Below are positions 636 through 17,551 of a DNA stretch of 55,842 bases, one piece after another; within the stretch, counting starts at the first letter, position 1; every line of letters begins with the position of its first letter. Where the stretch lies: contig JBBCAX010000182.1 of NCBI GenBank assembly GCA_051382335.1, forward strand, positions 1 through 55,842, written 5' to 3'. The position numbers and the translations under genes were made by a program. The DNA is from Deltaproteobacteria bacterium TL4. GTDB lineage: Bacteria > SAR324 > NAC60-12. The notes under the pieces were generated by a model. It made no database searches. It was not told where the DNA came from and was given only the letters and a program-made list of their open reading frames with translations.

Positions 636-1823
636 CTCAATCCCAAGGCAGTCCTCTGTTTTTATGGATTATATGCTTCGATCAATGCCTCCTGTTTGAA
701 AGAAATGGGGGTTCATCTGGTTTTGGGCGGCGAATTTGAAGAGCCGTTATTACGATACTGCCTCAAGTATCAGGAAAACAAGACACTCTCTTCCAAGATT
801 CCGTTTGAATCCCATACGTATTTAGAGCGTATCAACTTTCAAATCCCTGACCGTCATGATCTGCCTGACCTGTCTCGATACGCCCAGCTCATCTTACCGG
901 GTTCTCGTAAAAAAACAGCTTATGTTGAAGCCAGCCGTGGCTGTAAACACCAATGCCGGCATTGTCCCATTGTTCCCGTTTATCAAAAACGTTTTTTTGT
1001 GATTCCTCAAGACGTAGTTTTAGCGGACATCCGGCAACAAGTCGCCAGCGGTGCGGAACACCTCACCTTTGGAGATCCTGATTTCTTCAACGGCATAGGC
1101 CATGCGCTGCCCATCGTACAGGCCTTACATGCGGAATTTCCAACGTTAACGTATGATGTGACCCTTAAAATAGAGCATCTTTTAAAACACCAAGCCTCGT
1201 TGTCTGTGCTGAAGGAAACCGGATGTTTGCTCATTACCAGCGCAGTAGAGTCCTTTGAAAATGAAACCCTTGAACTGTTACAAAAAGGCCATACGGTTGA
1301 GGACATTCGAACCGTAGTTCAGATTCTTCGGGAGCTCTCAATTACTTTAAATCCAACCTTCATTGCCTTCACACCGTGGACTACTTTGGCAAACTATCGT
1401 CATTTTTTAACGTCCCTGGTGGCTTTGGATTTAGTGGAACACGTTTCTCCGATACAACTGGCCATTCGCTTGCTGGTTCCCCATCAATCCCGACTGTTGG
1501 AGTGCCAGGAGTTACAACATTTTTTTGAAGTTTTTGATGAAAAACAATGGGTTTATCCTTGGAAAAACAGGGATCCCCGGATGGAGGAACTCCAGCTTCG
1601 TTTAGTCGCGCTGATCGCAAAAAATAGCGCGTCCAAACACTCACGGACCACGATTTTCAGTCAAGTTTGGAACATCGCTTCGGAATACGCGGAAGCCGAG
1701 AACCCGTTTCCACCTTTGCCGAATATTCCTCAACGAGCAACGGTTCCTTATCTCAATGAACCTTGGTATTGTTGAGCAGAACCCACCGAAGAGCAGGTGG
1801 CTCTTCTCAAAACGAGGCTGTAG
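636..1823 (+). pseudogene. CUAEP-tail radical SAM selenoprotein, 5'-truncated by IS insertion; UGA 1773-1775 read as Sec, true stop TAG 1821-1823
   Basis: CKHQCRHC (CxxxCxxC) motif. The frame continues through TGA as YLNEPWYC-U-AEPTEEQVALLKTRL*. The first 8 codons of the predicted ORF (612-635) are IS end sequence. Confidence 0.85.
1788..1806 (+). promoter_or_regulatory. Putative bacterial SECIS hairpin
   Basis: GAAGAGC-AGGTG-GCTCTTC: perfect 7-bp stem with G-rich loop, starting 12 nt after the UGA. Confidence 0.7.
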
Positions 1824-1940
1824 ACAGTCCTCTTTGATTGTGAATTAAAAAGGTGAGTCCACTCAATACGCAAAAAACGCTAAATTTATTTTCGTGTGTT
1901 TCGTGGACTGAAGCGTAAAAATAACCCCAAGCTTTCCTGG

Positions 1941-3209
1941 ATGGACATTATGGGAGAACAAAAACCCAGAATTCTTTTATTGATTCCCAATACAAGTTAC
2001 CGAACCACCGCTTTCTTGAGTGCGGGTTCCAAACTTGGGGTGGAGGTTGCCGTTGCGTCTGAAACGAAAAGATCACTGGCTGATCTTGCACCGGGAACCA
2101 CTTTAAAAATTGATTTCAGAGATTCAGGGCAAGCGGTAAAGGCAATCCTGGAATTTGCGGAATCTTATCCGTTGAAAGCGGTCCTGGGCGTTGATGATGA
2201 ATCGGTGATCTTGGCGGCGGAGGCCAGTTTAGCGTTGGGATTGGTTCATAATCCAATTGAGGCGGTCATGCTCACAAGAAATAAGGTTTTGATGCGTGAA
2301 AAATTATCGAAACATCCGCTTCTTGCGCCTCAATATTGGTTATTTTCTCTTCAGGATCAGGTTGCTGAAATGGCACAGACCGTTTCCTACCCTTGTGTTC
2401 TAAAGCCACTTTTTCTGTCCGCAAGTCAGGGGGTGATTCGTGCAAATAACCCCACCGATTTTCTTTCCGCATTTCAAATCATTGAATCCCTGCTCAACGA
2501 TCCGGCTATCGCAAAGCGAGGTCAGCAAAAAGCCCGGCAACTTTTGGTGGAATCCTATATCCCGGGTGCTGAAATTGCGCTCGAAGGCCTGCTCATTAAA
2601 GGCAAACTCAAGCGGTTGGCACTTTTTGATAAACCGGATACGCCGGAAGGTCCTTTTTTTCCTGAAACCATATATACCACCCCCTCCCAACTCTCGGCGG
2701 TTGTGCAACGTCAGGTGGATGAGCTCATCCAACAGGTTTCTGAAATTATCGGTTTGTATGAGGGTCCCATTCATGCGGAGATGCGCGTTAATGAACAAGG
2801 CCTCTGGCTGCTTGAAATCGCGGCACGTTCCATTGGAGGACTTTGTTCCAGAGTCCTTCAATTCACAGGAGGCATGTCGCTTGAGGAGTTAATTCTACGT
2901 CATGTTTTAGGAAGAAATCTTCACGCTGCGGAACGACAGGATCGTGCTTGTGGTGTGATGATGCTGAGCGTATCTCAAGCCGGTGTGTTGAAAGAAGTCA
3001 GGGGGCTTGAGGCAGCCAAACAAAAACCGGGGATTAAGGATGTTTTAATCACCATTGCGCCTGAGACGCCAGTGGAACCGTTACCCAAGGATGCCCGTTA
3101 TTTAGGCTTCATTTTTGCGGAAGGAGAGACGCCTCAGGAAGTTGAAGCAAACTTGCGGCAAGCGGAACAGTGTCTGGAAATTGTGATTGACGTCCCTGAC
3201 CATTTATAA
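1941..3209 (+). CDS. ATP-grasp domain ligase
   Basis: Motifs TRNK..MR, YPCVLKPLFLSASQGVIRA, LVESYIPGAE, HAEMR, LEIAARSIGG. Start at ATG 1941 or 1950. Confidence 0.85.
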   Translation: MDIMGEQKPRILLLIPNTSYRTTAFLSAGSKLGVEVAVASETKRSLADLAPGTTLKIDFRDSGQAVKAILEFAESYPLKAVLGVDDESVILAAEASLALGLVHNPIEAVMLTRNKVLMREKLSKHPLLAPQYWLFSLQDQVAEMAQTVSYPCVLKPLFLSASQGVIRANNPTDFLSAFQIIESLLNDPAIAKRGQQKARQLLVESYIPGAEIALEGLLIKGKLKRLALFDKPDTPEGPFFPETIYTTPSQLSAVVQRQVDELIQQVSEIIGLYEGPIHAEMRVNEQGLWLLEIAARSIGGLCSRVLQFTGGMSLEELILRHVLGRNLHAAERQDRACGVMMLSVSQAGVLKEVRGLEAAKQKPGIKDVLITIAPETPVEPLPKDARYLGFIFAEGETPQEVEANLRQAEQCLEIVIDVPDHL

Positions 3210-10694: not shown

Positions 10695-10985
10695 CTACAC
10701 TGAGGACGGCTTTCTGATTTTTTTTAACGCTTTGACGCAATTCTGTACTGAGGCCAGCCTGCCTTTTTTTCGGATGTGATCCACCATCCTCTCCAGGCGA
10801 CTGAATTTCTGTTCCAACTGTGCTTTCCCCATGTGTATTTCTTCCATCAGCATGACATGACGATCGGCCAGGTATTTGAAATAACGATCGTAACGCTCCG
10901 CATCAATTTCCTGATGCTCCAACTGCCCTTGGAGTATCTCAACTTCCTTCAAAAAATTTTGTAACGCTAACTTTTCTCGATCCAA
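10695..10985 (-). CDS. Small hypothetical coiled-coil protein
   Basis: 96-aa ORF with AAGGAGG RBS upstream of a TTG start. Confidence 0.6.
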   Translation of the reverse strand: MDREKLALQNFLKEVEILQGQLEHQEIDAERYDRYFKYLADRHVMLMEEIHMGKAQLEQKFSRLERMVDHIRKKGRLASVQNCVKALKKIRKPSSV

Positions 10986-11027
10986 TCTTTTGCCTCCTTC
11001 ATCATCATTCTATGGGTTTAGGGGCTC

Positions 11028-11281
11028 GGCTACCCCTTAAAGCGGGACATTGGTAGGCGGGGATTACATGCCCCGCTTTTCTGAGCGTTGAGTTTGCCGG
11101 GGTTGGTCATATTTTCGGCCAGGGGTAGCCTTGGGTTTCGCCCCGAGGAACAATGTGCTCGGTATCCCCTGGGACGAAACCCAGGGCTACCATCAAAATG
11201 GCCGAACTTACGACCAAGCCCAGTTTGCCGGACACGTAGTTCCGACCTACCATCGAGGTGTCCCGGATTAAACGAGTAGCC
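11028..11281. mobile_element. MITE with GGCTAC-type TIRs (outer element)
   Basis: Left GGCTACCCCTTAAAGCGGGACA; right end reverse-complements to GGCTACTCGTTTAATCCGGGACA. Flanks AGGGGCTC / AGGGACTC match 7/8 (TSD). Confidence 0.65.
11099..11221. mobile_element. 123-bp MITE with the same TIR as the window-start IS
   Basis: 22-bp TIRs at 11099-11120 and 11200-11221 (18/22 match). Perfect 8-bp TSD AGTTTGCC at 11091-11098 and 11222-11229. Internal hairpin GGTAGCCTTGGGTTTCG...CGAAACCCAGGGCTACC. Confidence 0.85.
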
Positions 11282-11440
11282 AGGGACTCCCCTTCAGAGT
11301 GCCATTAACTCCTTGATAATTAAAATAAATAATCACCAGTAACCTCCGTTGCATTCAATCAAAATAACACTGAAAAGTCAAAACAGAAACATAATAATGA
11401 GCGGATGATGAGACTTCCATCATAAAAATTAAAAAAACAT

Positions 11441-11467
11441 TAAAGAATTCATCAAGGATACCGATAA
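11441..11467 (+). promoter_or_regulatory. Sigma-28 (FliA) promoter P1
   Basis: TAAA-N15-ACCGATAA. Confidence 0.7.
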
Positions 11468-11530
11468 GAAAGATAACCGTCTGTTAGATGGGATAACAAC
11501 ATAAATACACAAAACATCAAAAAATAAGAC

Positions 11531-11557
11531 TCAAGAATATTGACAAGATGCCGATAA
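11531..11557 (+). promoter_or_regulatory. Sigma-28 (FliA) promoter P2
   Basis: TCAA-N15-GCCGATAA. Confidence 0.75.
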
Positions 11558-11625
11558 GGTAAGTAAGCGGTTGTTATTTTAGTAAACGATTATCTGGCTC
11601 TTTAGTGACCAGCTTTAAGGAATGA

Positions 11626-11728
11626 TATAGATGTCCAGAAAAGTTCTGTTTCGGGGGGAGGGCGTCCCGCCCTCCGGTGAGGGCAAGATGTCCTCGTTCC
11701 CAGGAAAAAACTTATCTGGAATACTATA
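11626..11728. mobile_element. TA-ended MITE (IS630-like) with a GC-rich REP-like core
   Basis: TATAGATGTCCAGAAAAGTT ... AACTTATCTGGAATACTATA (16/20 inverted match). Confidence 0.55.
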
Positions 11729-13064
11729 ATCGGGAACAATCGTTAGAGCGTTCTTATTTCTCAGGGGGCTTCTCAGAGGAGTTAATTTCACTTAAGGAAT
11801 GGATATGATATTGGTTTTTGAAAAAAGCAACCTTTTCCTAATTGACGTGAATACACGGAAAACAAAGAATTCATGAGGTTCTCACAGAAACGATCAGAGG
11901 GTATGCCCCTCGTCTTAAGGCAGAACTTTATCTTTGATTTCAAAGAATAACGCTGTTCTCATTGCGGCCGAGTTTGAGGTTGAACCTAATTTTGGTCTCT
12001 CTGCGACCTCCTTGTCGAGGCTTTGCCTCACGATGCAAATTTGCAAGGTTCGGCCTTGTCTGGAGAGTCAACATTTCGTAGGAATCGCTTCAATGTGAAC
12101 TGAATCGGTTTTATCTCAATGAATTGTGTCTTAACGGAACAAACATGAAGGTCGCTCTTGAGAGTCTGATTTTTCATAATTGTCCGCTTAATCCTAATCA
12201 AACAAAGGGCTTAGGATTAAGCGTAGGATTACGATTAAAAAAGTATTGCGATCATCGAACTCAAATTAAAGTAAGAGGTCTCGTTTTCATTGACGTCGGA
12301 GTGCCGTTCTTGAACACGTTACTGTCAGACACAACGTAAGGTGTCTGAATAGTCGTTGTCGCCTGGTTGGCTTTTGCGGTTAGATCCTGTTTTGAAAAAT
12401 ACACAGCTTTTTTAAGAAGCAACGACCTATTCCGCAACGCTCCCCACACAGGAATCCTGTGTAAAACGATAGGAACGATTCGAATGGACGAGAATGTGAT
12501 TAAGCCTATAAATCATGCTTGAAACACATGAAATCATTATGAATTTCGATCTTGAATGACGTATTTATGAACGCAAAGAACGAATTGATTTCAGCTCAAC
12601 GCAAGAAGATCTGGGTGAACGTTTGGATAACATAGAAAGTTTGTTTCTGCTCGAAATAAAGTAGAGTCGCCACCTTGTCATGAGGTGACGCTATTTAGAA
12701 AACAAGCAGGGGTTCCAAGAACACTGGATCTCTTTGTGGGGGCCTGCATGACGATTATGTAATAAATGTGTTTTGATGTGTTGTTGTTATTTATCTTTTC
12801 AAAGGAATAGCTTCGCGAACTTTAGCGTGTTTCGTTTCCTTAACATAAAAATATCGTAGTGTTTTAGTACGAAAAAAAGCCTTTGAAGTCAAATGTGGAT
12901 GTTTTAGGACCCCCTGATTGAAAAGACTTATGAAACTCAAGAGTTGTTTTGTGATGTTGTGTGTTTGTGTAAATCTGTAATTAAAATAATATTTAGTGGA
13001 TATTCTGTATCACGAATTGTGACGTAGAAACATCTATTCACCCCCCATGTAAGGAGGTATTGTC

Positions 13065-14675
13065 ATGGCTATGCGTGTGAATCATAATATAGCTTCGATG
13101 TCTGCTCTCAGACATCTGGACAAAACCAACAGGTCAACCCAGAAGAATTTGGCAAATCTGTCTTCAGGACTGAAGATCAATTCGGCAGCGGATCATCCTG
13201 CGGGATTAGTGATTTCAGAGCGTATGCGAGCACAGATTTCAGGTATTGATCAAGCGATCAGGAACTCCGAAACATCGATTTCGATGGTTCAGACCGCTGA
13301 AGGCGCCCTGAGCGAAGTCAGTAACATTTTGATCAATATGAGACAGCTTGCGCTTCATGCGGCGAACGAAGGGGCAAATGATCCCCAAATGCTGCAAGCG
13401 GATCAGAGTGAACTGGAAAATTTGCTTTTTTCTGTAGATCAAATTTCAAAAAACACTCAATTTGGAACTAAAAATTTACTGGATGGTACCACCGGAGCGA
13501 GTGGAATTACCGTTGGGGAAGGACTGGCTTTTGTGGAAGCTTCCACCACGACGAAACCCTCTCCAGAAAAGGGTTATGAAGTTGATATTCAACAAGTCGC
13601 GACTCAAGCTATCACCAAAGGGATTCGTCCAATCACAGTGGCAGATGTAGAGAATCAGAATGTGACCTTTGTGATTAACGAAGGCGGCAGAACGATGTCT
13701 TTGAACACAGAGGATCCCTCCGTAAGTGCCGCCTTGAAAAAAATGATTGATAACCGAAATGCCAGCCCTGATGTGTATAACGAGGATTTAACGAACAAAA
13801 ATATTCGTACGGTGATTGCTCAAAAGTTACAAGCTGGTAGCGAGGAAGCGGGGCTTGCCGTTGATGTCTATATTGATGAAGCAGGAATGTTAACCATTCG
13901 TCATCATGAATTTGGAGCAAGACCTTCTTTTAATGTGACAAGTAACATTGATGGAGTTTTGTCTCCCAAAGCCAATGTTGCGAAAATGGCCACCCCTGGA
14001 AAGAATATCGGAGGCTTTATTGGTGGAGATTTAGCCTTCGGAGAAGGACAGTTTTTAACCGGTGCGCAGGGAACTTCTACGGAAGGATTAAAAATCAAGT
14101 ATGATAAGGTACTGGGCACTCATTTTGAGGACATCATCAATCCGGAAACCGGTGAAGTCACCGGAAGGTCTGTGGAGCAAAACGACAATCAAAGCTTGGT
14201 AGGCGCGCCCGTGGACGGTTATATTCATGTGAGTCAGCAATCACTGGCCTATCAGGTGGGTCCCAATGAGGGGCAGCAAATTCGACTTTCAATCGGTAAT
14301 GTGAAATCGAACCATTTAGCAAAACAAGTGAACAATGAAAGTGGTTTTAGCAGCCTTTCGGATGTTGATTTAACCACTAATCGTGGTGCGCAAGACGGTA
14401 TTTTGCTCATTGATCGGGCGATTAGTGAAGTCTCCGGGATAAGGGCACGCTTGGGTTCTTTCCAGAAAAACGCCTTGGAAACGAATCTGAGTAGTTTGAG
14501 AGTTGCTGGAGAAAACTTAACCAATGCGGAATCTGTGGTTCGTGATGCGGATATGGCAGAAGAAATGAGCGATTTTACCAAGAATCAGATCATGCTGGCT
14601 TCTGGAACCGCAATGGCGGCACAGGCAAATCAAATTCCAAAGTCCGTCCTGCAATTGATTAGTGGCGCTCAGTAA
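13065..14675 (+). CDS. fliC: Flagellin (536 aa)
   Basis: MAMRVNHNIAS, LSSGLKINSAAD, QTAEGAL N-terminus; RDADMAEEM..FTKNQIM..AQANQ C-terminus; AAGGAGG RBS. Confidence 0.95.
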   Translation: MAMRVNHNIASMSALRHLDKTNRSTQKNLANLSSGLKINSAADHPAGLVISERMRAQISGIDQAIRNSETSISMVQTAEGALSEVSNILINMRQLALHAANEGANDPQMLQADQSELENLLFSVDQISKNTQFGTKNLLDGTTGASGITVGEGLAFVEASTTTKPSPEKGYEVDIQQVATQAITKGIRPITVADVENQNVTFVINEGGRTMSLNTEDPSVSAALKKMIDNRNASPDVYNEDLTNKNIRTVIAQKLQAGSEEAGLAVDVYIDEAGMLTIRHHEFGARPSFNVTSNIDGVLSPKANVAKMATPGKNIGGFIGGDLAFGEGQFLTGAQGTSTEGLKIKYDKVLGTHFEDIINPETGEVTGRSVEQNDNQSLVGAPVDGYIHVSQQSLAYQVGPNEGQQIRLSIGNVKSNHLAKQVNNESGFSSLSDVDLTTNRGAQDGILLIDRAISEVSGIRARLGSFQKNALETNLSSLRVAGENLTNAESVVRDADMAEEMSDFTKNQIMLASGTAMAAQANQIPKSVLQLISGAQ

Positions 14676-15141
14676 TCAATAAATCGGATACGTTAAGTAG
14701 GGGAGCCTTTTTCTCAAAGCTTGATTCTTTGGACGATTGGGAAAACTCAGCGTTATTGTGACAATAGTTAACGTATTCGGAGGTTACCTTATAGGCGGAG
14801 GCCCTTTTCTCTATAAGCTTAGGGTTTTCCGCTTAAGAGAGATACCTCGTCAAGGAAGGTACAGAAATTTTAACGTACCTTCGTAGCAATAGGGAGCCCA
14901 GTGCTCCGCTAAAAAATAAGCAGCCTGAGGTTGAGAATGACACAAGGCTTGTTCTTGGTGTAATGATTTTCACTTTAAGGCTCACCTTTGGATCTAACGA
15001 TGAGGAGATAGCGCGTCGTAATGACTCTCTTGGAATTTAGACCTTCAGGGAGGATGGCGATCGGAAAAACAGTGTGCTTCTAACCCTGGTTTTTTGACTT
15101 TGCTATAGCGGGAATAGAAATAAAAACAGAGATTTCTGAAA

Positions 15142-15169
15142 TAAGGAATAAAGGGAAAGGTTCCGATAG
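15142..15169 (+). promoter_or_regulatory. Candidate sigma-28 promoter for the second flagellin
   Basis: TAAG-N16-TCCGATAG; weaker match than P1/P2. Confidence 0.5.
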
Positions 15170-15359
15170 GGATGTCAGTCCAGTGTTCGCAAGTAAAAAC
15201 GTACTTTGTAACCAGGACAGAACCCTTGTCTTGGCTACCTGCTTAAGCCGGGACAGTAAATTTTCTTAATCTTAAGTGAGCAAAACGGGATTACGCTTAC
15301 GAAGCGCAAATAATAGCAAGAGGATCAATCAGTTCGAGGATTAAATGAGTATCCCCTTT

Positions 15360-15597
15360 GGCTACCCACTTAACACAGGGGAGGATGTGTTAGCGAGCTT
15401 GTGAGCGTAACGCCTCAGGCAGATGCGGGCTTATTGAGGCTCGGCTAACCCTACTTTGAATAGCTGTCCCGCCTTTTGTAAGAAAGTGGTAGAAGGGGAC
15501 TACGTGCCCCTCACTTTGCCGGGCATGTAATCCCGGCTTACCAATTACTTTCAGGCTTCGTTGTGAGACTTGTCTCATGGGGGTTAAGTGGATAGCC
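15360..15597. mobile_element. MITE with GGCTAC-type TIRs containing a REP pair
   Basis: GGCTACCCACTTAAC ... GTTAAGTGGATAGCC (14/15). Flanks TCCCCTTT / GCCTCTTT. REP pair at 15487-15543. Confidence 0.65.
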
Positions 15598-15916
15598 GCC
15601 TCTTTGTTAACAAATGCGGGGTTCTAAAAATCCTGATCGTTCCGAGTTTCCGGAGGGGAGCACAAAACTTTGAACAGGTTGATGTTCAACTTTTGAAAAA
15701 TTGAAGATCCATCTGTTTATTGACGGTTCTCTTGAAGTGAGGACAAAAAGGTAGAGTCGCAGCGTGTTTTACAGGTTGAGGGGTCCGTCAACAACCTGGA
15801 ATCCGCCTTAATTAACGATAAAACCACGCTCTCGGAGTGCAGGATTTTATACAAGCTATGGGTTATTTAAATACTTTTGTTTTTAATGCTCCTGTTTCAT
15901 CACGGGAGCCTTTTTC

Positions 15917-15934
15917 CAACACATGGAGGTGTTG
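15917..15934 (+). promoter_or_regulatory. CsrA/RsmA-type binding hairpin
   Basis: CAACAC-ATGGAG-GTGTTG: perfect stem with an ANGGAN loop about 66 nt before the flagellin start; a second GGA lies in the SD. Confidence 0.65.
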
Positions 15935-16000
15935 TTTTTTTTGTAGTGAATGTCTCAATCATTAATTAGCAAACATCTTATTTGATGTAGGAGGTCCATT

Positions 16001-17551
16001 ATGTCTTTTAGAATAAACCACAATATAAGCTCCATGAATACGCAGCGTATGTTGAATAACACAACACGTGCTCAAAGCAGTAGTTTGGAACGATTGTCTT
16101 CTGGTCAAAAAATCAACAAGGGTTCTGATAGTCCTGCCGCCTTGGTTATTTCAGAACGTTTACGTTCTCAAGTTTCAGGCTTAACACAAGCCATTGATAA
16201 CTCAGAAACTGATATTTCCCTGGTGCAAACCGCAGAAGGCGCACTCAACGAGGTCAGCCGAATGTTAATCAATGCACGTCAGTTATCCGTTCATGCGGCG
16301 AACGAAGGTGTAAATGATGATGTGATGCTGGCTGCAGATCAGTCTGAGATAACCAATGCGTTAGACACCGTAGATCGAATTGCCAAATTTACGCAATTTG
16401 GAAAGAAAAACCTGATTGACGGCAGTCGAGGTGCCAGTGGCGTTGCCAATGGCGAAAATTTGGAATTTGTGAGTGCCTCCACAAAAACAAAAACCTCAGG
16501 TGTTTCAGGGTATGGGGTTAATATTACGCAAGCCGCAACACGTTCAGAGCTGAATGGGACGGTTGGCTTAACTCAAGAAATCATTGATAGCGGAGAGCGC
16601 ATTACCATTTTGGAAGGTGGAAAAACCCTTCATTTTGCCACGAAAAAAGGAGAGAGCGTCGAAAGTACATTGAACGCACTTGCCGTAAAAATTGGGGAAG
16701 TAGGTTTGGATGTTGAATTGTTGCGGGATGACACAGGGTTCAAAGCCCCTGCCGTGGATTCAGCACAAATATCGTCTACACAGGATGCAAATGCTAATGT
16801 GGAAGGGGTGGAATCTGACATACCTCCGGCAGCAATGAAAGGTTTAATTCGTTTACGTCACAAAAAATATGGAAGCGAATTTTCGATTTCAGCCTCCAGT
16901 TCAACGGCAGGCATTTTATCAAAGCAAAGTAATGTAACGGTTGAAGCCAAACGCGGTTTGGATGTCGCAGGAAAAATTAATGGAGAAGAAGCGGAAGGTC
17001 GAGGTCAGACCCTGACTGGGAAATTGGGAACCAAAAATACAGAAGGCTTGTCCATTCGCTTTACTGGGGAAGTCGCGCCACCTCCCAATACAACCATTGG
17101 TGCTGTCGCGGTATTTAATAACTCCTTAAAGTTTCAAATTGGAGCGAATGCTGGACAGACCACAGAGTTTTCTATGAAAAATATGAGTTCTCGTGCTTTG
17201 GGAACAGGAATTGAAACGGAGAGCGGCTTTAAAATGCTGAGAGACATTGATGTCACTACCGCACAAGGGGCCCAAGACTCCATCCGTATTTTGGATGAAG
17301 CGTTGGTGCAAGTAGCGTCAACTCGTGGTGATTTAGGAGCCTTCCAGAAAAACAACCTGGTGAGTAACCTGAACTCCTTGAGAAATACTCATGAAAACTT
17401 AACCAACGCTGAATCTGTGATTCGTGATGCGGATATGGCTCAAGAAATGGCAGACTTTACCAAAAACCAGATTATGATGCAATCTGGTACCGCGATGTTG
17501 GCACAAGCTAACCAAGTTCCTCAGGCAGCTTTATCGTTGCTGAATCGTTAA
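16001..17551 (+). CDS. fliC: Flagellin (516 aa)
   Basis: MSFRINHNISS, LERLSSGQKIN, QTAEGALNE, IRDADMAQEMADFTKNQIM motifs; AGGAGG RBS. Confidence 0.95.
   Translation: MSFRINHNISSMNTQRMLNNTTRAQSSSLERLSSGQKINKGSDSPAALVISERLRSQVSGLTQAIDNSETDISLVQTAEGALNEVSRMLINARQLSVHAANEGVNDDVMLAADQSEITNALDTVDRIAKFTQFGKKNLIDGSRGASGVANGENLEFVSASTKTKTSGVSGYGVNITQAATRSELNGTVGLTQEIIDSGERITILEGGKTLHFATKKGESVESTLNALAVKIGEVGLDVELLRDDTGFKAPAVDSAQISSTQDANANVEGVESDIPPAAMKGLIRLRHKKYGSEFSISASSSTAGILSKQSNVTVEAKRGLDVAGKINGEEAEGRGQTLTGKLGTKNTEGLSIRFTGEVAPPPNTTIGAVAVFNNSLKFQIGANAGQTTEFSMKNMSSRALGTGIETESGFKMLRDIDVTTAQGAQDSIRILDEALVQVASTRGDLGAFQKNNLVSNLNSLRNTHENLTNAESVIRDADMAQEMADFTKNQIMMQSGTAMLAQANQVPQAALSLLNR

Follow-up and report, generated by a model that had tools for sequence, protein, structure and literature searches.

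A long putative leader between distal sigma-28-type promoter boxes and one clade of SAR324 flagellin genes

The window analyzed here, a 55,842-nucleotide stretch of DNA from Deltaproteobacteria bacterium TL4 (SAR324), carries on its plus strand a flagellin gene of 536 aa (13065-14675), whose product contains the Pfam Flagellin_N and Flagellin_C domains and finds its best public matches among flagellins of SAR324 cluster bacteria. A second flagellin follows at 16001, and there are ten flagellin-like matches in the genome as a whole. A Shine-Dalgarno (SD) sequence, AAGGAGG, precedes the first gene at 13051-13057 (+). Two near-perfect promoter boxes of the sigma-28 (FliA) type stand far upstream on the same strand: P1, TAAAG-14-ACCGATAA (11441-11467), with a predicted start site near 11474, and P2, TCAAG-14-GCCGATAA (11531-11557), with a predicted start near 11564; they lie 1624 and 1534 nt from the ATG at 13065. 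The two boxes score up to 21.8 bits against a matrix of 37 distal boxes, whereas no sigma-28 site in the interval down to the ATG exceeds -0.3, less than the 5.3 ± 3.3 reached as a maximum in shuffled sequence. This agrees with the initial annotation, which had found sigma-28 matches only some 1.5-1.6 kb upstream of the ATG. Scans of the region for sigma-70 promoters and terminators gave matches at chance level only, and no sigma-54 box was found there. The interval 11474-13064 (+), with limits set by prediction, is a candidate 5' untranslated region of about 1.5-1.6 kb in the flagellin mRNA; the assignment draws on the absence of an ORF, its single copy, the conserved layout, and contigs from RNA libraries of a relative.

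The genome encodes fliA, rho, rnc, csrA and fliW; it is rated 100% complete, and neither hfq nor flbT was found in it. Just 5' of the promoters, a MITE family with up to 82 genome matches occupies 11025-11290, with related pieces at 15325-15600, and a 96-aa ORF without a Pfam or NCBIfam match runs divergently from the leader (10695-10985, minus strand). The 1.3-kb gap before the second flagellin (14676-16000) contains MITE pieces and two terminator-like hairpins (15888-15934), and no sigma-28 box.

The region between the boxes and the gene appears to be non-coding. Its longest ORF is 71 aa and none of its 13 small ORFs matches Pfam, which bears out the earlier statement that it holds no credible ORF. 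The initial annotation had also attributed only about 100 bp of it to MITEs, and a single MITE of 103 bp does lie inside (11627-11729, ends read from the sequence); it is a lineage-specific passenger with up to 196 genome matches over 11616-11739 and is distinct from the family upstream of the promoters. There is no second copy of 11750-13075 in the genome, and among its 320 gaps of at least 500 nt only one offers a longer stretch free of repeats and ORFs. Its stems are absent elsewhere in the genome, so they are not the dispersed repeats that had been raised as a counter-explanation. An Rfam search returned only a tRNA in the window and nothing in the gap, sub-threshold hits being confined to miRNA-type matches on MITEs (E up to 5), and 20 relative loci gave no match at all; the earlier remark that hallmarks of a c-di-GMP riboswitch or group II intron are missing is in line with this. 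Phage and plasmid collections gave no match to the leader, nor was there a real match in 60 related genomes, leaving the window's stems without a homologue for covariation analysis; a 29-nt match in G002 was dismissed, as it sits before an unrelated transporter-like gene.

The leaders of relatives also read as non-coding, because their indels ignore the reading frame (69 of 75, in eight pairs, are not multiples of three) and they have no small SD-preceded ORF in common. A leader-peptide attenuator was rejected in this context, with no short SD-bearing ORF common to any of 24 leaders; a 23-codon ORF at 11805 occurs in the window only. Against the non-coding reading, stop-free frames of at least 150 codons occur in the gap of five GC-rich relatives. 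The possibility of a flagellin fossil was likewise discarded: a profile search of 22 leaders in six frames gave E values of at least 6, the best tblastn matches were short and on the reverse strand, and tblastx gave no matches on other contigs.

Comparison with orthologous loci shows that this arrangement is widespread. Upstream sequence of 200 nt or more is available for 44 distinct orthologue loci; 37 of them carry sigma-28 boxes, the nearest of them 492-1777 nt from the ATG; the other seven are cut short at 200-1128 nt upstream and lack a box. The box-bearing loci span 10 genera, and 22 of the 37 are strains of one genus, g11. Boxes are usually tandem in the other genera, and relatives carry tandem boxes at the same place as P1 and P2. 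Three further loci have box-to-ATG distances of 885, 1105 and 1133 nt. No internal sigma-28 site scored above shuffles in 20 of 22 leaders, and paralogous flagellins that have a box mostly carry it 61-422 nt upstream. In a quick tree, where the 'long' label was assigned by similarity score and three rows have cut-off leaders, the long-leader flagellins, the window's gene included, form one clade (SH-aLRT 99). Orthologues occur in most genera of the family and none was found outside it at equal score; across this SAR324 family the leaders range from 0.5 to 1.9 kb. By these sequence comparisons, the layout is real and conserved family-wide before one SAR324 flagellin clade. Seven orthologues (L005, L007, L009, L013, L016, L018 and L031) lie within 350 nt of a leader-side contig end, which suggests that assemblies often break here.

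At intermediate distances the leaders are more similar than the fourfold sites of the flagellins they precede (0.80 v 0.62, 0.82 v 0.68 and 0.65 v 0.46, with two more pairs at 0.73 v 0.62 and 0.74 v 0.68), given that alignment inflates leader identity, for which the shuffled baseline is 0.39-0.47, and that L008/L036 is left out since the same CDS was picked for both. When the fourfold sites of the upstream gene serve as reference, the excess stays for L045/L050 (0.73 v 0.57) and is gone for a pair from genus g12 (0.74 v 0.76). In the leader set L035 was replaced by L008 and L210. Between genera, leader identity falls to the shuffled baseline and the leaders cannot be aligned; only the promoters, a 27-bp palindrome described below and the SD are common to leaders across genera. 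The mean folding z was negative in all 19 leaders tested and near -2 in five of six g11 leaders. Such fast turnover of primary sequence between genera suggests that what selection maintains is leader length, folding at the local level and a small number of signals, rather than a single overall fold. For the large RNA that the initial annotation had considered, a fold common to the whole family is not supported, as leaders fail to align across genera and the window's own stems are without a homologue.

Other apparent similarities among leaders were rejected. The word CCGTAC, present in eight of 17 lineages, occurs in unrelated contexts and is absent from the window; the likeness of g11, g2, g3 and L117 in having a hairpin followed by TCGAAYTG is post hoc and weak; no antisense sigma-28 site is common to the leaders; and a pairing between the 5' end and the SD, predicted in g11, was not reproduced in other genera, and the same bases can also pair locally.

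Within the window's leader, the longest hairpin lies at 12174-12234 (+), with 13 perfect pairs and about 21 when bulges are included; the region 12170-12240, chosen post hoc, has a z of -5.35, with none of 200 shuffles as good. A hairpin cluster at 12005-12069 (+) reaches -28.7 kcal/mol (z -2.37; 6 of 200 shuffles as good). Further stems at 12325-12348, 12348-12431 and 12446-12462 fall within 12321-12462 (+; z -2.2 and -3.0), that at 12348-12431 competing with other folds, and another hairpin about 400 nt 5' of the ATG occupies 12659-12696 (+; z -3.0). All four stems named in the initial annotation are therefore present, while its description of the region as dense in stems holds in part: the 12170-12240 hairpin is strong and 11735-12700 as a whole has a z of -2.72, but the folding is modest against other gaps, and in 100-nt tiles the leader ranks 30th of 70. 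The folding z-score analysis it had suggested gave -2.8, -2.4 and -2.1 in 700-nt windows over the 5' two thirds, but +0.2 in the last 700 nt, which are unstructured; 38 other long gaps used as controls gave -0.25 ± 1.6, with values of -2.8 or lower in 6 of 76. The plus and minus strands fold about equally. Overall, the folding of the window's leader is modestly above that of other long gaps.

A better-conserved structure is seen in the marine genus g11, whose leader shows more conservation than synonymous sites do and where a hairpin of 19 pairs lies about 470 nt 5' of the ATG with 93% of 304 cells paired. Two of its pairs show two-sided changes, ten of the 19 never vary, and the rows are related, so the covariation is thin. 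The many G-U pairs fix the hairpin to the plus strand as RNA, and a competing 7-pair hairpin on the same strand takes its 3' strand. Two divergent genomes that did not contribute to the model also retain the hairpin, and 10 of 18 g11 genomes have it, each at a single site. Internal deletions relative to close relatives, of about 320 nt in L045 and about 170 nt in L048, both leave it in place. Neither the window nor any of 11 other genera gives a hit with the g11 model; individual long stems are present in most of the remaining leaders. In the window, the hairpin at 12659-12696 sits where the conserved g11 hairpin does and gives no match to its model; that at 12174-12234 is the best candidate for the same role, with only putative homology. 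RNase III substrates are duplexes of about two helical turns, a shape shared by the 19-pair g11 hairpin and the window hairpin of about 21 pairs, in a genome that has rnc. In L036 (3311-3526), a hairpin module of about 77 nt is repeated three times in tandem and is present once in its relative L008.

The only internal element common to all genera examined, which the initial annotation had missed, is an AT-rich pseudo-palindrome of 27 bp at 12976-13002, with the consensus TGTCA-N17-TGACA and a core of AAAAT-N3-ATTTT. It was found in 21 of 21 leaders, GC-rich ones included, at fixed length and 59-204 nt 5' of the ATG; with a matrix seeded on g11 and the window, its leave-one-out score exceeded all 40 shuffles in 20 of the 21. 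The window's copy scores 17.7 bits, against at most 10.7 before the eight paralogous flagellins of the genome (8/8). Because its spacing is fixed and its mismatches disrupt pairing, the palindrome is likely to be a DNA element bound by a dimeric protein; we know of no regulator that matches it. A matrix built without the window gives 28 genome matches above 15.5 bits. The best (29.5 bits; L200, G000:C256:4927) belongs to a flagellar cluster, where it follows two ORFs resembling fliS by eye, precedes an unknown gene of 420 aa and stands 2.3 kb ahead of a further flagellin; the second best (L201, G000:C374:22452) lies between sucA and a pseudopilin-like gene. It is possible that the strongest copies mark a regulon.

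To look for transcription we compared RNA libraries with L073, a g11 relative of the window with its box at 368 and its ATG at 1512. Eleven runs recorded as RNA contain 0.43-0.61 of the words of this locus, and coverage extends over 24-29 of 30 bins. Contigs from three RNA studies fall on its leader (425-786, 429-1033, 490-858 and 1090-1400), and one (1147-3203) takes in 365 nt of leader, the palindrome, the SD and the gene and continues past the stop codon; none of those listed extends from promoter to ATG. These contigs show neither strand, ends nor level, the libraries may contain DNA, and a spanning contig is not the same as a single transcript. The data fit transcription of at least 365 nt of the L073 leader, with DNA in the libraries as the other possible source. 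Contig depths were 66-90, 22 and 100-160 in the 5' half and 13-24, 8-17 and 17-20 in the flagellin, although contigs cannot rank parts of a gene, and a DNA-like run gave 23 and 34-48 for the same parts. No listed RNA contig crosses 1034-1089, where the hairpin is, whereas the DNA-like run does; the end points of the RNA contigs vary, one coinciding with a switch between alleles, and cDNA synthesis can itself be blocked by a strong hairpin. Two of the contigs, starting at 425 and 429 and thus some 25 nt downstream of the predicted start, open with a sequence that we take to be the library adapter. These hints from depth, gap and adapter motivate the gated and released-RNA models discussed below and are not counted as evidence. 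The L073 leader contigs contained no joint, and so gave no sign of splicing. An inversion switch is not supported either: four runs on L073 gave no strand-changing joint, in contigs that drop rare variants. Long-range inverted repeats in the window are of low complexity and match at 72-86%. The segment L073:3229-4827, which separates the first and second flagellins of g11, encodes a 532-aa ORF with only a partial Flagellin_N match.

We propose that the distal boxes drive RNA through the non-coding region, and consider this likely. As to function, our preferred reading, to which we give about even confidence, is a 1.5-kb sigma-28 leader gated by the cutting of, or stalling at, a hairpin together with a protein operator. 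Polymerase carrying FliA would start at the tandem boxes, taken here as working promoters, late in flagellar assembly, and one transcript would run from P1/P2 into the flagellin gene. Midway along the leader, a long hairpin would serve as a cleavage site for RNase III or stall the polymerase, and a dimeric regulator, presumed to bind the palindrome near the start codon, would set the number of transcripts that reach the SD, so that the gate would pass only part of them to the flagellin. In the window its own hairpins would take over the part of the g11 hairpin. The initial annotation's proposal of a long leader or co-transcribed RNA is thus retained in so far as the layout in 10 genera, the plus-strand hairpin of g11 and the contigs of a relative favor it, but without the single family-wide fold. 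A Rho site is not favored since the leaders are richer in G than in C; rho is present, and in none of 20 80-nt tiles of the window does C exceed G by more than 2. A NusG paralogue (L215:1480-2025) was rejected as a player, as it belongs to an unrelated cluster with genes that by eye are polysaccharide-like. More speculatively, and with considerable doubt on our part, the hairpin might set free the first 600 nt or so of the leader as a stable sigma-28 RNA serving a separate function; an abundant marine lineage without Hfq would then tie the synthesis of flagellin to a long regulatory RNA and to a so far undescribed flagellar transcription factor.

The same features can be read as two transcription units, the boxes driving a separate RNA of some 600 nt with its 3' end at the hairpin, the flagellin having its own promoter downstream, and we regard this as unlikely. 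MotR, made by termination in the motA 5' UTR (PMC10578931), provides a parallel, and in several pairs conservation is highest over the first quarter of the leader. The g11 hairpin block can also be taken for a weak sigma-28 box in the sense direction, TGAAG-15-CTTGATAA, but this scores -1.0, below chance, and in one held-out g11 genome TGAAG has become TGAGG with the G-U pair kept. Similarly, an antisense sigma-70 box, TTGACG-18-TATCAA, is present in seven of seven g11 leaders, yet two held-out g11 genomes retain the hairpin and lose the antisense -35. No internal promoter is common to the genera; the promoter-bearing flagellins here use sigma-28 boxes, and the window's flagellin has no other. 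In a passive leader, control would instead be exerted on the DNA, by the tandem promoters and by the palindrome as a roadblock or loop anchor, with folding serving to avert termination and decay. This would explain why only DNA-type signals are common to the genera, and would suit the length range of 0.5 to 1.9 kb, the tolerated MITE and internal deletions, the excess of G over C through most leaders and the second palindrome that 5 of 21 leaders carry another 180-370 nt upstream. We nevertheless judge it quite improbable, as the invariant core of the g11 hairpin, its wobble pattern and the competing 7-pair hairpin exceed what passive folding needs, and as 1.1 kb is kept in genomes of 2-3 Mb.

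Two further readings have little to recommend them. OLE, GOLLD and ROOL are large ornate non-coding RNAs, and a leader of this kind, with one conserved fold, would be in keeping with its size, with a location-independent folding signal in g11 and with several small g11 helices that show two-sided changes. Neither the window nor the 20 relative loci matched Rfam, however, neither alignable sequence nor a model match links the genera, and the consensus fold of 12 g11 leaders comprises only 61 pairs in 1203 columns, which makes an ornate RNA the most improbable of the readings considered. A CsrA sponge of the CsrB/RsmZ type, in which GGA motifs would be many, enriched and conserved, or a giant CsrA-controlled leader in a CsrA-FliW-flagellin switch, is suggested by the adjoining csrA and fliW genes, by GGA at 1.4-1.6 times the base-composition expectation in GC-rich leaders, and by the C. 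jejuni flaA leader, which titrates CsrA (PMC4894983). In the window, however, GGA occurs 25 times against 23 expected and ANGGA seven times against seven; the complement TCC is also raised in the GC-rich leaders, and GGA ranks 17th of 63 trimers for conservation in g11. We consider CsrA control of either sort very unlikely.

The gated leader can be set beside known systems. It resembles MotR in that a sigma-28 promoter is common to an upstream RNA and a downstream flagellar gene (PMC10578931), here judged from sequence; for MotR, termination versus read-through in the 5' region has been proposed as the control point. The SAR324 region differs in its length of 0.5-1.9 kb, in its location before flagellin itself and in belonging to a genome in which hfq was not found, whereas base pairing by RNAs of the MotR type is aided by Hfq, and its discrete 5' RNA is only putative. 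The C. difficile flgB leader is a 498-bp 5' UTR with a c-di-GMP riboswitch, an invertible flagellar switch and Rho-dependent termination (PMC7446863). In both cases a long untranslated region gates flagellar transcription after initiation, as proposed here for SAR324, but the flgB leader follows a sigma-A promoter and is a third of the length, and its riboswitch and invertible segment were not found in the SAR324 leader. A long imperfect stem in an rnc-bearing bacterium recalls the RNase III-processed duplex of C. jejuni CJnc190 (PMC8687705), which is a small trans-acting RNA, whereas cleavage is here only proposed. In common with C. jejuni flaA, the SAR324 locus has a sigma-28 flagellin mRNA, csrA and fliW, and a leader with a possible second role. 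The Hag-FliW-CsrA network of B. subtilis is reportedly of the same kind. The flaA leader acts through two GGA loops (PMC4894983), while in the far longer SAR324 leader GGA is neither enriched nor specially conserved. In hfq, the riboswitch and GGA motifs, respectively, the SAR324 leader does not fit the MotR, C. difficile flgB or C. jejuni flaA family. In the literature found, judged by titles and the openings of abstracts, a long sigma-28 leader before a SAR324 flagellin is unreported, and supplements to RNA-motif surveys could hold the g11 hairpin.

Flagellin leaders are typically tens to a few hundred bases long, and even the comparable flagellar leaders are far shorter than those of SAR324 (498 bp for C. 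difficile flgB). The retention of a kilobase leader on one flagellin clade, including in ocean genomes of 2-3 Mb, points to a costly form of control after initiation. For an uncultured and abundant group, the locus offers three handles: the hairpin, the 27-bp site, a copy of which is found at a second flagellar locus as well, and the stable 5' RNA that is predicted here.

The longest repeat-free, ORF-free stretch of the genome, 2.2 kb in length (L205, G000:C367:9428-11652), lies between a sigma-28 box on the minus strand (C367:13699) and a 135-aa gene of no known family, which has the 27-bp palindrome 96 nt upstream; this is possibly a second very long leader.
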